Origin: Cytophagales bacterium
Lineage (GTDB): Bacteria > Bacteroidota > Bacteroidia > Cytophagales > Bernardetiaceae
Assembly (NCBI GenBank): GCA_013299045.1
Contig: JAAFJX010000031.1
Span: forward strand, 1-42,114
Length of the DNA: 42,114 nucleotides
Direction: 5' to 3'
The position numbers were made by a program, and so were the translations under genes. Position 1 is the first letter of the stretch; the number at the start of each line of letters is the position of its first letter. The notes under the pieces were generated by a model. That model ran no database searches and was not told where the DNA came from. It saw only the letters and a list, made by a program, of their open reading frames with translations. Shown here one piece after another: positions 34,406-42,114 of the stretch.

Positions 34406-37400
34406 ATGCTTGCACTCACAAAAACCTCATTTTTTATGCTTAGCGGACTCCTTTTTGGAATAATGCTCTTTGTAAGTACTTTAGCTCAAGCTCAAACCTG
34501 GCAGCAGTTGGATAGTTTGGGGCAAGCTCTTACCAAACAACAAAAGCTCAAAGAGGCAGACTCGGTTTTGCGAATAGCTCTCAAAAAAGTGGAGCAGCAG
34601 CATGGCCAAGATACAAGCTATGCTATGGTGGTAAAAAATTTGGGAACAGTCTATTTCTATGCCAGGGATTACCACAACGTAGAGCCTTTTTACTTGGAAG
34701 CTAAGTCTATTTATGCAAAAAAATTGGGTACAAAAAATGCAAAATACATTTCCTTATGCAATGGTCTAGCGCTCACATATACCGTATTGGGTTTTTATCA
34801 TAAAGCAGAGCCTTTTTTCTTAGAAGCTGTTAGTCTCAAAGAGGCCATGGTGGGCAAAAAAAATAAGGAATATGCACTTCTCATTACGAATTTAGCAGAT
34901 CTCTATCAAAAATCCGCCCAATACACTAAGGCAGAACCTTTTCTGATTGAGGCCAAAAATATACGCGAAGAAATTCTTGGCAAAAAGCACGCAGATTATG
35001 CTACGTCATGCAACAACTTAGGTAATTTTTATTGGTACACAAGCCAATATGCTAAGGCGCAAGCATATTACTTAGAATCAAAAAACATCTTTGAAGAGTT
35101 GTATGGGAAAAAGCATACCAGCTATGCCACGTTATGCAATGATTTGGCAGCATTGTACTACAGCCAAGGGCTTTATCATAAAGCTGAGCCGCTGTATTTG
35201 GAAGCCAAAGAGATTAGAGAAGAAGTTTTAGGCAAAAGACACCCCGAATATGGCACTATTTGCGGAAATTTAGCGGCCTTGTATGCGGCACAAGGACTCT
35301 ATGTTAAAGCGACTCCACTTTTTCTGGAGGTTAAGAATATTCAAGAGAGTTTTTGGGGAAAGAAACACCCCTATTACACGGCTGCGTGTCTTAATTTAGC
35401 CAACATTTATGCCGAGCAAGGGTTTTATGCTCAGGCAGAGGAGCTTTACATAGAGGGCAAAAATATACGTGAGTTAATGCACGGTAAATTGGATACAGAT
35501 TATGCTTCACTCTGTAATAGTTTAGGAGAGTTGTATTATCAAACAGATGTATATGATAAAGCAGAGCTGCTTTTTGTTGAAGCCATGGAGGTTTTTAGAG
35601 AGGTACTGGGTGAGAAAAGCCCTAACTACGCAATAGCCTGTGGCAATGTGGCCAATCTATACATGACACAAAATCTTCCTGAGAAAGCAAAATCCTACCT
35701 CATTGAAGCATATAAAGTAACAGAACTTACCTTAGGCAAAAAGCACCCTAGATATGCGCACACCTGCAATCAGATGGCGCTTTTTTATCATAGATTAGAA
35801 CAACATGACAAAGCACTTGAACATTACAAGGAGTCTATTCAAGTTAAAAAGGAAGAGATGAATACTTTGTTCCCCACCTTCTCTGAATTAGAAAAACAAG
35901 CTAACTGGCAATCAATAGCCTATTTTTTTCATGATTTTGCTAAATATGCGCAGAGCTATGCCCACCAAAATCCCGTCATCATGGCCGACCTCTACGACCA
36001 AACCCTCTTCACCAAAGGCATTATTTTCTCTTCCACCCAAAAAATAAAAAATACCATTCTAAACAGCGGAGATACGGTTTTGGTCAATCAGTACAACAAC
36101 TGGAAAAAGCAGCGCGAAACCTACACCAAGCTCTATCAATTGTCTTTGGAAGAACAAAAGATGCAAAGTTTGGACTTGGACGACATGAAAAACCAAATCA
36201 ATGATTTAGAAAAAGACCTGTCCAAAAAGTCTGCTCTCTTTGGTCAGAACGTGCAAACAAAATCTTACAAATGGCAGGAAGTGAAAGCAAAATTAGCTAA
36301 AAATGACGTGGTTATAGAAATTATCAAGGCGGATTCGGCTTATATCGCTCTCTTTCTAACCGCCCAGACGGAGGATTATCCGGCTTTTTATCTCTTCAAA
36401 AATGCCAAAAATTTAGAAACTAACTATCTCAACTTCTATAAGAATTGCATTGAGTTTAAGATAGAAGATACGGTTTCCTACAACGCCTTCTGGAAGCCAA
36501 TAGCAGACAAGTTATTGACTTTGAACAAAAAAGGCTTCAAAAAAATCTATTTGTCGCCAGATGGTGTTTTCCATCAACTCAGCCTGAATACCCTCAAAAA
36601 TCCTAAAACTAATCAATTTCTTTTGGAAGAGGCTAATATTCAGCTTATTGGCAGTAGCCGCGATTTGATAGAGCTGAATAAAAAAAGCCGCGATTTGAGC
36701 CAAAACTACGAGAATTATCAGGCGCATTTGCTCGGCTACCCCATTTATGGGACTGAAAATGGCGAACCCATCAAAAACCGCGACCGTGCAGCAGGTTTTT
36801 CAGGTGTGCAGTCCGCTGTGGGTGTGGCGGGGGCTGTTTCCTTGCTGCCTGGCACGAAGAAAGAAGTGGAAAATGTATTTGGTTTGTTCAATCAAAAAAA
36901 GCTGAAGGTAAACCTACTTTTGGCTGAAAATGCCACCGAAGAAGCCCTTAAAAATCTCAAAAGCCCCACCATTTTGCACGTGGCCACGCATGGTTTTTTT
37001 ATTCCCGAAATCAAGGATTCTGAAGTGCAAGATATGCAAACAGCCATGAACCGCAATCTTTTGAAAAACCCTTTCCTCCGCTCAGGTTTGTTGCTTGCTG
37101 GCTGTCAAAAACCCAACCCAGAAGGCGAAGACGGCATTTTGACGGCCGAAGAAGTGATGAATTTGACGTTGGACAACACGGAACTCGTCGTGATGTCTGC
37201 TTGCGAAACAGGCTTAGGCGATATACAGGCGGGCGAGGGCGTTTTTGGTTTGCAACGCGCTTTTCAGCAAGCGGGTGCAAAGTCCGTGCTGATGAGCCTC
37301 TGGAAAGTGGACGACGATGCCACGCAAACCCTGATGACCGAATTTTACACAGCCCTACTCAAAGGCCAAAGCAAGCGCCAAGCCTTCAAAACAGCCCAAA

Positions 37401-40539: not shown

Positions 40540-42114
40540 ATGAAAAATATACTTTTGACAATCACCTTACTCTTTGTAAGTACTTTAGCTCAAGGCCAAA
40601 CCTGGCAACAGTTAGATAGTTTGGGGCAAGCCCTTACTAAACAACAAAAATTCAAAGAGGCAGACTCTATTTTGCAAATTGCCCTCAAGAAAGTGGAGGT
40701 GCAGCACGGAAAGGATACGAGTTATGCGAAGGTGGCAATAAAGATTGGATTAACCTACTTCCAAATGCATAGATACGAGCAAGCACAATCTGTTTATCAG
40801 GAAAGTTTATCCATTATTGAGACCTTCCATGGAAAACTCTACCCAGCCTATTCAACAGTACTTTCTAGACTCGTAAATGTCTATTCTGAATTGGGTAATT
40901 ATAAAGAATCCAATCAAATTATAGATGATTATATGACTATTCTGAAAAAAGAAGGAATGACAAAAAATATTTCTTACGCGAATTTCTGCTCTCAGAAGGG
41001 TACACTTTATGCAAGACAGGGTTTATATTACCAGGCAGAGCCATTTATGGTACAAGCAAAAGAACTAAGAGGCGAACTTCTTGGCAAACAAAATGTTGAG
41101 TATGGACGGAGTTGTTACTTACTGGCCAATATCTACCAAGTAGGTGGCCTATATGATAAGGCAGAACCTCTTTACTTAGAAGCACGTAGTATTATTGAAC
41201 AGGCTTTAGGAAAAAAGGATATATTTTATAGTGCTTTGTTGAATAGTTTAGGTATTCTATATTTTGACTTAGGCTTATTTGATAAAGCAGAAGCTCTTTA
41301 TATTGAGGCAATAAATATTCTTGAAGGCACCGTAGGTAAGAATCATCCATATTATGTTCTTTACGGCAATAACCTCGCTAACATTTACATGATAACCTCT
41401 CGCAATGAAAAAGCATTGCCTATACAAATTGAGATTATAAAGATTAGAGAAGCCCGTTTGGGAACTTTACACCCAGAAAACGTAGGTTTCTATGGAAATT
41501 TGGCCAATCAGTATAAAGTGCTAGCTAGATATGCTGAGGCGGAAGCCTATTACAATAAGTCTTTAAGTATATCTCTTAACGCCTATAATAACCAACATCC
41601 TGAATATGCGCGTGCGGTTTATAATTTAGCAAGTATGTATATCGCAACTAAGGAATATCAAAAAGCAGATTCTTTACTAAAATTAGCTATACCAGTACTT
41701 AAGACTTCATTGGGCATTGGACACATTGATTACCAACAAGCCAACTTTGCAGCACATCGCCTTTATAGAATTATGCAAAAATATGATAAAGCAGAAGAAT
41801 ATCTAAGAGAGACAACTCTAAACCAATTAAGTGTTATGAAAGATATTTTTTCTATCCTTTCAGAATCAGAAAAGAATAGTTATTGGGTGGACAAAAGACA
41901 TTTTTATGAGGCGTATTATAAATTCTTTTTGGAGGCAGCTCAGCAAAAGCCAGAGATGACATCTATCTTGCAAAATCAAATTTTAAACACCAAAGGCATT
42001 ATTTTCTCTTCCACTCAAAAAATAAAAAATACCATTCTAAACAGCGGAGATACCGTTCTTGTCAATCAGTACAACAACTGGAAAAAACAACGTGAGAGCT
42101 ACACCAAACTCTAC
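40540..42114 (+). CDS. Exported TPR-array + CHAT-family protein, paralogue 3 (3'-partial, runs off the window)
   Basis: It starts 19 nt after paralogue 2 with the same intergenic string (aaattaactcataaaaaaa). The leader is nearly identical, the TPR array is different and diverged, and from about 41995 it re-enters the conserved KGIIFSSTQKIKNTILNSGDTVLVNQYNNWKKQRE block. The frame is open to the window end. Confidence 0.75.
   Translation, partial: MKNILLTITLLFVSTLAQGQTWQQLDSLGQALTKQQKFKEADSILQIALKKVEVQHGKDTSYAKVAIKIGLTYFQMHRYEQAQSVYQESLSIIETFHGKLYPAYSTVLSRLVNVYSELGNYKESNQIIDDYMTILKKEGMTKNISYANFCSQKGTLYARQGLYYQAEPFMVQAKELRGELLGKQNVEYGRSCYLLANIYQVGGLYDKAEPLYLEARSIIEQALGKKDIFYSALLNSLGILYFDLGLFDKAEALYIEAINILEGTVGKNHPYYVLYGNNLANIYMITSRNEKALPIQIEIIKIREARLGTLHPENVGFYGNLANQYKVLARYAEAEAYYNKSLSISLNAYNNQHPEYARAVYNLASMYIATKEYQKADSLLKLAIPVLKTSLGIGHIDYQQANFAAHRLYRIMQKYDKAEEYLRETTLNQLSVMKDIFSILSESEKNSYWVDKRHFYEAYYKFFLEAAQQKPEMTSILQNQILNTKGIIFSSTQKIKNTILNSGDTVLVNQYNNWKKQRESYTKLY

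Follow-up and report, generated by a model that had tools for sequence, protein, structure and literature searches.

What kind of protein is encoded by an array of genes whose ends are nearly constant and whose middle differs from copy to copy? The question is raised by contig JAAFJX010000031.1 of assembly GCA_013299045.1, from a Cytophagales bacterium of the family Bernardetiaceae; the whole stretch of 42,114 nucleotides (nt) was analyzed and is referred to below as the window. In the open reading frame (ORF) listing, three genes, here called A, B, and C, lie head to tail on the + strand and run up to the window end. An earlier note, made from the DNA letters, had described them as exported paralogs that combine tetratricopeptide repeats (TPRs) with a caspase-like CHAT domain and have constant ends and a variable TPR middle, and domain, dyad, and fold searches together with windowed identity comparisons bear this description out. 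The explanation that we consider fairly probable is that A, B, and C belong to a lineage-expanded family of Sec-exported, soluble TPR-CHAT cysteine proteases of the separase/Craspase type, guided by their TPRs to paralog-specific ligands.

The domain assignments of the earlier note hold. Pfam CHAT is matched by both complete copies, A and B, at scores (Table 1) to be compared with a cutoff of 24 bits, and gene C ends at the window edge before its CHAT domain. The note had named a missing match to CHAT profiles as grounds for its refutation, and its proposal withstands this check. Pfam TPR_10 and TPR_12 match all three copies with E values of 1e-41 to 1e-74; a search of NCBIfam returned TPR models below threshold only. 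The caspase-like dyad proposed in the note is likewise intact: HVATH(G) and SAC(ETG) motifs are present in A and B, and His854 and Cys925 (B numbering) are invariant across an alignment of 63 homologous sequences. The array proteins are most likely CHAT cysteine proteases with a His-Cys dyad, their proteolytic activity being predicted.

An AlphaFold2 model of B, built from the 63-sequence alignment (predicted local distance difference test, or pLDDT, 86; predicted template modeling score, or pTM, 0.82), begins with 11 helix pairs and continues through a helical scaffold (residues ~457 to 600) into an alpha/beta region (~620 to 770), a disordered loop (774 to 790), and the caspase-like domain. 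A flexible loop with pLDDT below 50 lies right after the catalytic Cys, at residues 930 to 938. In a Foldseek search of the PDB, the model matched human separase (1e-12), DdvA (6e-12), and Csx29 (2e-10) over the whole chain; Craspase TPR-CHAT and SAVED-CHAT also matched, as did the TPRs of kinesin light chain at ~30% identity. As modeled, the array proteins have a caspase/separase-like CHAT fold. When the constant carboxy-terminal module (C-module) was searched against PDB sequences with phmmer, no meaningful match was obtained, so that kinship to the solved CHAT structures is visible at the fold level only. The loop at B 774 to 790 (window ~39804 to 39854) and its counterpart in A (…EKKRDRSLGFSG / …IKNRDRAAGFSG) are disordered, indel bearing, and rich in basic residues; this patch, the most variable of the constant module, separates the pseudo-caspase-like domain from the active one and may be a site of autocleavage or regulation.

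At the DNA level, the conserved ends of the genes are one continuous tract of ~1.7 kb that bridges the gene junctions. Constant tracts 1 and 2 (Table 1) are ~91% identical in 100-nt windows, and identity drops to 42 to 46% just past their downstream side; the array is an alternation of ~1.3-kb variable cassettes with ~1.7-kb constant tracts. A repeat search recovered the constant tracts at a period of 3,049/3,055 nt and the TPR units at a period of 126 nt, the latter with merely 60 to 74% nt identity. At the protein level, the C-module measures ~485 amino acids (aa), CHAT included, and the last ~490 aa of A and B are 95% identical. The note had counted a shared linker of ~500 aa plus a CHAT domain, and this has to be reduced to a block of ~485 aa in total with CHAT inside it. 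Its statement that copy C re-enters the constant block just before the window end is correct, and the 42 residues with which C breaks off are the same in two further paralogs (P0014 and P0015) of the set introduced below. The spacers between the genes, which had been called identical, are so in their length of 19 nt; their sequences, atattaactcataaaaaaa versus aaattaactcataaaaaaa, agree at 18 of 19 bases. Because the spacers are this short, genes A to C are probably cotranscribed, and a scan found no terminator-like site on the + strand at either gene junction.

The constant tracts frame cassettes that differ widely. Identity among the aligned A, B, and C proteins was computed in 50-residue windows. 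The leader (signal peptide plus the first ~47 mature residues) is 78% identical between A and B and 95% between B and C; the conserved leader of ~40 aa recognized earlier corresponds to the first TPR-like unit of 42 residues. In the TPR middle, identity is 38 to 62% between A and B and ~25 to 45% for A or B versus C, and the 42-residue, kinesin-light-chain-type TPR cassettes of A and B are ~45% identical. The TPR region keeps a strict 42-residue register without indels. From the mature N terminus to the anchor TKGIIFSS there are 506 aa in A and B and 464 aa in C, so that the cassette comprises 12 unit lengths in A and B and 11 in C; as the note had it, the TPR arrays differ in both sequence and repeat content, and C is strongly diverged. 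Core units lack positional orthology. A given unit of A resembles the unit of B with the same index about as closely as it resembles any other, and identity between units is 40% within a protein versus 37% between proteins. Paralog cassettes share a structural consensus only, and nearly every nonscaffold position differs. Tandem Repeats Finder (TRF) detected no DNA-level tandem repeat in the TPR region, and recent unequal crossing-over of single units is therefore unsupported.

We compared the variable positions with the canonical TPR. Among 123 core units, variability is highest at unit positions 8, 9, 40, 5, and 25. With L3, A4, Y7, A16, and A23 anchored as canonical positions 7, 8, 11, 20, and 27, unit positions 40, 1, 5, 8, and 9 become canonical positions 2, 5, 9, 12, and 13, which vary most in TPRs generally and lie along the concave, ligand-binding surface (PMC1261162). 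This ligand-contact set includes four of the five unit positions with the highest variability, a distribution that fits a predicted paralog-specific binding of ligands.

The array represents a far larger family. More than 3,500 homologs were found at E <1e-10 in one database search; named homologs in NCBI are called CHAT domain-containing (tetratricopeptide repeat) protein, and the nearest of these come from Bernardetiaceae and other Cytophagales, with 44 to 57% identity. Closer to the array are at least 19 further paralogs (NCBI singletons, 57 to 74% identity) with the same leader and C-module, located on contigs of 20 to 256 kb with several per contig. The family has thus expanded to at least 22 copies, A, B, and C included. 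Cassette lengths of 380, 422, 464, and 506 aa correspond to 9, 10, 11, and 12 units of 42 aa plus 2, from which three paralogs deviate by one or two residues, and the C-module has 484 or 486 residues (485 in one paralog). When the C-module was used to scan species-representative genomes and metagenome contigs, no match covering most of the query exceeded ~40% identity.

The two parts of these proteins have separate histories. Among the paralogs, C-module identity is 70 to 99% (median, 84%) and TPR-region identity is 28 to 61% (median, 43%), and the two similarities are uncorrelated (rho, -0.06). All four gametes are present in 150 of 253 informative site pairs of the C-module, a reticulate pattern that indicates recombination or gene conversion among paralogs, or recurrent change. 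Between A and B, the nonsynonymous and synonymous divergences (dN and dS) of the C-module are 0.039 and 0.40 (dN/dS, ~0.1), and the module is under purifying selection; the leader has a dS of 0.08 between B and C. The TPR region has a dN of 0.49 to 0.78 with dS at saturation. The cassettes are either old and lie beside homogenized constant tracts or are very fast evolving, and the data fit both. The logic of a diversified recognition family, put forward in the note, stands insofar as a constant catalytic part is joined to a variable binding array; diversification of the middle as its sole cause does not, since the low dS of C-module and leader and the reticulate variants mean that the pattern is at least partly due to homogenization of the constant tract.

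We next consider export. The N termini of A, B, and C each consist of a short polar stretch with one Lys, a hydrophobic core, and AQA or AQG followed by Gln; QTWQQLDSLGQA... follows AQA/AQG in all three copies. These features agree with the Sec signal peptide that the note had assigned to each copy. A signal-like N terminus was detected in at least 104 of 117 homologs by a crude hydrophobicity test, most exceptions being truncated starts that still show "...AQ." Gln20, at +1 of the predicted cleavage site (B numbering), is invariant in the 63-sequence alignment, consistent with the Bacteroidetes Q-rule, under which signal peptidase I leaves Gln at the N terminus of most of its substrates and this Gln is cyclized to pyroglutamate (PMC5837995, PMC10653852). 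The mature protein starts straight at the first TPR unit, and the signal peptide of 19 to 29 aa is the sole N-terminal hydrophobic segment of the preprotein. There is no lipobox Cys at +1 and no further hydrophobic or transmembrane (TM) helix in the B model. The C-terminal domain of type IX secretion system (T9SS) cargo, Por_Secre_tail, had no match in Pfam or NCBIfam, and the proteins end in CHAT (...YYWGAFVMVGE). Given a signal peptide and the Q-rule, without a TM segment, lipobox, or T9SS domain, the default expectation is that the array proteins are most likely soluble and periplasmic. The note had held export to be atypical for known CHAT defense effectors. The homolog counts and the invariant Gln20 argue otherwise, almost the entire Bacteroidota TPR-CHAT family appearing to be exported, and the structure of a periplasmic member, DdvA, has been solved. 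Cys occupies unit position 42 in 98 of 123 core TPR units, and mature A and B contain 11 Cys each, about one buried per TPR unit plus the catalytic Cys.

Similar arrays are found in relatives. The complete genome of Bernardetia sp. ABR2-2B (5.3-Mb chromosome) has five TPR-CHAT genes head to tail, encoding 875 to 1,123 aa, between housekeeping genes and with spacers of 42 to 124 nt; identity within that array is ~0.4 to 0.5 over the N-terminal half and climbs to 0.9 at the C terminus. Two to five same-strand copies are present at 19 of 81 related loci, including loci of Prevotella, Parabacteroides distasonis, and Nostocales. Together with the ABR2-2B array, these loci establish the tandem layout as a recurrent, real feature.

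Neighboring genes recur in subsets of the related loci only. A TolB-like PD40 plus OmpA peptidoglycan-binding protein (~650 to 690 aa) is encoded near TPR-CHAT in four Cytophagales loci (L005, L008, L009, and L020), two genes upstream in L008 and directly downstream in the other three. Eight gut Bacteroidales loci (L032, L041, L055, L065, L051, L058, L064, and L072) share an ordered cluster that runs from TPR-CHAT through an exported Peptidase_C14 caspase to a divergent sigma-70 region-2 protein, with a ~220-aa protein containing one hydrophobic stretch after the sigma-like gene in some of them. The first four, of which L032 is from Parabacteroides distasonis, have two TPR-CHAT genes and, upstream, genes for a MORN plus trypsin-like protease (~755 aa), a 227-aa PPC-like protein, and a ~580-aa protein; the last four have one TPR-CHAT gene. 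The sigma-like protein scores 26.8 bits versus a cutoff of 24 in L041 and is weaker in L064. The cluster may be a signaling module leading from an extracytoplasmic protease to a sigma factor; the Bacteroidales relatives are only ~30% identical to the array proteins.

The remainder of the window was surveyed for genes that could accompany the array (Table 1). Genes 5' of it encode a STAS protein, a metallophosphoesterase, an alpha/beta hydrolase, Obg, MiaE, a 7TMR-DISM/SpoIIE protein, a glycogen-synthase-like protein, and RuvB. Farther upstream are genes for an extracytoplasmic function (ECF) sigma factor, a GAF protein, a long TPR protein, MgtE, a DinB-like polymerase IV, a SusC/SusD pair, a second ECF sigma factor, a major vault protein (MVP)-like protein, and GlmS. 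Both ECF sigma genes are more than 11 kb from the array and unlinked to it. Among the ORFs scanned (all large ones, not every ORF of at least 100 aa), there were no cas, reverse transcriptase, integrase, or mobile-element genes, and PADLOC matched no defense model in the window. As the note had stated, Pfam, NCBIfam, and PADLOC scans reveal no cas gene, immunity gene, or T9SS domain; for the conflict or defense role toward which it had leaned, nothing in the window speaks, PADLOC being empty and the neighbors being housekeeping genes. The 7TMR-DISM/SpoIIE and STAS proteins are parts of a partner-switching pathway, and their genes are not adjacent to each other. Major-vault-protein-like genes are uncommon outside eukaryotes. 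The Bacteroidetes -7 promoter consensus is TAnnTTTG, and TAACTTTG upstream of gene A is a candidate promoter of the array on weak evidence: pattern matching finds the motif more often in the window than expected (76 matches versus 51), and a sigma-70 promoter scan performed no better than shuffles.

Table 1. Features of the TPR-CHAT array and of other genes in the window (window positions)
Feature	Position	Strand	Description
Gene A	34406..37465	+	Complete ORF, 1019-aa TPR-CHAT preprotein
Gene A, alternative start	34436	+	Gives the 1009-aa public protein P0006, equal to A from residue 11
Gene A, signal peptide (predicted)	34406..34492	+	aa 1-29, ...FVSTLAQA/QTW (slash, cleavage site); Q at +1 fits the Q-rule
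Gene A, variable TPR cassette	34634..35976	+	42-residue units 2-11 plus variable helical cap
Constant tract 1	35977..37690	+	C-module of A, spacer, signal peptide and first TPR unit of B
Gene A, Pfam CHAT	36479..37462	+	aa 692-1019, E 1.5e-64, 218.6 bits
Gene A, catalytic residues	His862 36989-36991; Cys933 37202-37204	+	Motifs HVATHGFF, SACETG
Spacer 1	37466..37484	+	19 nt, atattaactcataaaaaaa
Gene B	37485..40520	+	Complete ORF, 1011-aa TPR-CHAT preprotein; P0001 is 100% identical
Gene B, signal peptide (predicted)	37485-37541	+	
Gene B, variable TPR cassette	37691..39025	+	
Constant tract 2	39026..40745	+	C-module of B, spacer, signal peptide and first TPR unit of C
Gene B, Pfam CHAT	39528..40517	+	aa 682-1011, E 9e-65, 219.4 bits
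Gene B, catalytic residues	His854 40044-40046; Cys925 40257-40259	+	Invariant in 63 homologs
Spacer 2	40521..40539	+	19 nt, aaattaactcataaaaaaa
Gene C, 5' part	40540..42114	+	Open frame to window end, 525 codons, without stop
Gene C, signal peptide (predicted)	40540-40596	+	Followed by first unit and strongly diverged cassette, one unit shorter
Constant tract 3, start	41988..42114	+	127 nt up to the end of the window (whole contig)
Candidate array promoter TAACTTTG	34194..34201	+	Bacteroidetes -7 motif TAnnTTTG, 205 nt 5' of gene A
tRNA-His (GTG)	33932-34005	-	Within the 640-nt gap directly 5' of the array, 400 nt from the array
STAS-domain protein	33375-33761	-	Pfam
7TMR-DISM receptor fused to SpoIIE/PP2C phosphatase	26308-28551	+	Pfam
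ECF sigma gene 2	22809-23324	+	
TPR protein without CHAT	16881-20168	+	1095 aa, assorted TPR types, other class than the 42-residue units
SusC/SusD-like pair	7379-12078	-	
ECF sigma gene 1	6795-7304	+	Adjoins SusC/SusD-like pair
MVP-like protein	2444-4885	-	813 aa; MVP shoulder 8e-30, Vault_3, Band_7 (Pfam)

These data can be drawn together in the following mechanism. The preprotein would be cut after A-x-A, exposing the invariant Gln, and the mature protein of ~113 kDa would most likely be retained in the periplasm. There, a superhelical solenoid of 42-residue TPRs would lead through the helical scaffold to a pseudo-caspase and an active CHAT domain with its His-Cys dyad. The concave groove of the solenoid would bind an extended segment of a paralog-specific protein, which could be either a substrate or an allosteric activator, and the shared CHAT module would then cut at a defined site, as separase and Craspase do. 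The notion of a TPR-guided, specific protease derives from the fold kinship with separase and Craspase and from the flexible loop at 930 to 938 after the catalytic Cys; in these enzymes, a helical or TPR region holds the regulator or substrate, and it takes activation to bring the dyad into alignment. The family would grow by tandem duplication, with paralogs gaining or losing 42-aa units as wholes. Uniformity of the catalytic module and leader would be maintained by recombination or gene conversion between the 1.7-kb constant tracts, and old or fast-evolving TPR cassettes would persist between the homogenized tracts. The biological role could lie in envelope surveillance, signaling, or processing. 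By analogy, signaling by regulated proteolysis (the DdvA model, PMC11506125) and envelope surveillance would be the two most attractive roles, and the window supports neither.

If signaling is made the whole of the explanation, the array proteins would be ligand-gated "site-1" proteases that cut the periplasmic part of membrane regulators, such as anti-sigma factors, each paralog coupling another envelope signal to expression in a trans-acting version of DdvA. DdvA itself joins a periplasmic TPR-CHAT region to an anti-sigma factor, matches clearly in structure, and is proposed to self-cleave and so start regulated intramembrane proteolysis (PMC11506125), and the eight gut Bacteroidales loci place TPR-CHAT, a Peptidase_C14 caspase, and a sigma-70-like gene in order. 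However, those relatives share just ~30% identity with the array proteins, the ECF sigma genes of the window are distant and unlinked, and more than 20 paralogs would need many matching targets, none of which was seen; we regard this alternative as unlikely. A different one turns the array into an envelope immunity repertoire, in which germline-encoded periplasmic sensors would detect foreign proteins from phages, bacteriocins, or contact-dependent effectors and CHAT would then destroy the invader or trigger a response. It is conceivable that the more than 20 exported paralogs form such a repertoire, with gene conversion keeping a uniform frame and each cassette sensing another foreign or self envelope protein and responding with a caspase-like cut, and we give this extended version, too, a low probability. 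Copy expansion, unit gain and loss, ligand-face variation, and a cassette history uncoupled from that of the constant module are reminiscent of receptor repertoires. CHAT is the effector in several defense systems, DdvA has been proposed as a periplasmic sensor of a phage-associated protein (PMC11506125), and a tRNA-His gene is located 400 nt 5' of the array. Set against this are the empty PADLOC result, housekeeping neighbors (Obg, MiaE, RuvB, and a glycogen-synthase-like gene), scanned ORFs free of mobile-element genes, and an array GC content like that of the rest of the window, and an immunity repertoire appears doubtful to us.

Two further alternatives dispense with specific cleavage or with the array itself. 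TPR proteins often serve as scaffolds, and the array could encode a TPR scaffold or chaperone with a vestigial CHAT domain, or a general secreted feeding protease. A vestigial domain is hard to reconcile with His, Cys, and surrounding motifs that are invariant in 63 homologs and with a dN/dS of ~0.1; for a feeding protease, no T9SS C-terminal domain is present that would release it from the cell, and characterized enzymes of the separase/Craspase type are highly specific. Such a nonenzymatic or bulk role is highly improbable. The remaining alternative is that reads of dispersed paralogs were misjoined, since the contig ends inside a repeat and the constant tract is common to many paralogs. The break 127 nt into the third tract looks like a k-mer break of a de Bruijn graph at a repeat. 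A and B have no exact match longer than 104 nt in common, which is less than the 127-nt overlap at the contig break; with breaks occurring at 127 nt, the assembly could therefore traverse A and B unambiguously. A, B, and C cannot collapse into one gene, because their cassettes are only 25 to 62% identical in protein; the concern that the array is a single-gene artifact, raised in the note itself, is further answered by TPR units of 60 to 74% nt identity and by independent repeat periods. With the same layout in the complete 5.3-Mb Bernardetia chromosome and at 18 other related loci, an assembly artifact is extremely improbable.

Several points weigh against our preferred reading of ligand-guided, exported proteases. 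The predicted localization of the array proteins rests on sequence rules. Eleven Cys residues per mature protein are unusual for an oxidizing compartment. High variability of the concave face is a general property of TPRs and by itself no proof of diversifying selection here (PMC1261162), and dN/dS of the cassettes cannot be read because dS is saturated. The array locus has no conserved partner gene that would hint at a substrate, and the 19 further paralogs come probably, rather than certainly, from the same draft genome as the array.

Knowledge of CHAT proteases rests on four studied examples, separase, Craspase, HetF, and, very recently, the membrane-anchored DdvA. The array belongs to a very large Bacteroidota family, with the more than 3,500 matches given above, that is apparently soluble and exported. 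In the literature, we found no study of a soluble exported TPR-CHAT protein in Bacteroidota; one Bacteroides paper lists CHAT near a type VI secretion system region. If each cassette indeed selects another protein for a defined cut in the periplasm, the family would add a new layer of envelope signaling or surveillance in Bacteroidota, gut Bacteroidales included, and would offer a natural library of programmable protease specificities. It would also be a clean bacterial example of concerted evolution, in which a constant tract spans the gene junction and variable cassettes lie between. Were the family a sensing repertoire, it would be the extracytoplasmic equivalent of the NLR-type receptors of innate immunity and, among soluble periplasmic proteases of the separase/Craspase class, the first with a defined role. 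If the proteins are ordinary housekeeping proteases, the locus is merely a well-described paralog array.

TPRs followed by CHAT is the architecture for which the CHAT domain was named, and the array proteins can be set beside each of the studied systems. They resemble Csx29 of Craspase in the succession of TPRs, helical midregion, pseudo-caspase, and active CHAT with a His-Cys dyad, and likely also, by analogy, in that a TPR-bound partner governs specific cleavage. Csx29 is cytoplasmic, is found beside Cas7-11/gRAMP, a CRISPR array, and Csx30/Csx31/RpoE, and is activated by target RNA binding. Unlike Csx29, the array proteins have a signal peptide, a much longer TPR array, more than 20 paralogs, and no cas genes in 42 kb, and sequence identity is just 12 to 16%. 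Assignment to Craspase was rejected, there being no cas or PADLOC match, no cas gene among the neighbors scanned, and an export signal in A, B, and C. With DdvA they share the separase/Craspase-type TPR-CHAT architecture, the His-Cys dyad, and, by prediction, an extracytoplasmic location, and DdvA is the precedent for CHAT in the periplasm. DdvA has a cytoplasmic zinc-binding anti-sigma domain, a TM helix, and a paired ECF sigma factor, DdvS; it forms dimers and is without the three-helix active-site motif (PMC11506125). The array proteins, in contrast, would be soluble after cleavage, lack an anti-sigma domain, and occur in large paralog sets. A DdvA-type anti-sigma factor was rejected because no zinc-binding domain or TM segment precedes the TPRs and no sigma gene is adjacent within the contig.

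The likeness to separase lies in a helical, TPR-like N-terminal region followed by a pseudo-protease and an active protease; separase is a eukaryotic, nuclear or cytoplasmic enzyme with one gene, is controlled by securin and by phosphorylation, and has no sequence-level similarity to the array proteins. HetF of Anabaena, the founding CHAT protein, likewise combines CHAT with TPRs, and its activity needs the catalytic Cys (PMC9457339). In HetF, CHAT is cytoplasmic and the TPRs are periplasmic with a TM segment between them (PMC9457339), whereas both follow a cleavable signal peptide in the array proteins. The TPR-CHAT genes of the coral Acropora also show tandem expansion and a TPR length that varies strongly between copies (PMC12314368); they are eukaryotic, number in the hundreds, have no reported export signal, and are not directly related (PMC12314368). 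Other classes were tried and rejected. T9SS cargo does not apply, since the proteins end in CHAT and Por_Secre_tail is not matched. Polymorphic toxins have the reverse polarity, the C-terminal module being constant here and the middle variable, and the 19-nt spacers leave no room for immunity genes. For an array generated by a diversity-generating retroelement (DGR) or of the NLR type, neither a reverse transcriptase nor a nucleoside triphosphatase domain was found in the proteins or the scanned neighbors; for a DGR or high-identity-repeat array, TRF was empty and the TPR units share 60 to 74% identity in DNA and ~40% in protein. The array proteins are clear members of the CHAT superfamily and are best described as an uncharacterized variant of it, soluble, exported, and multicopy, with variable cassettes set in a constant frame.

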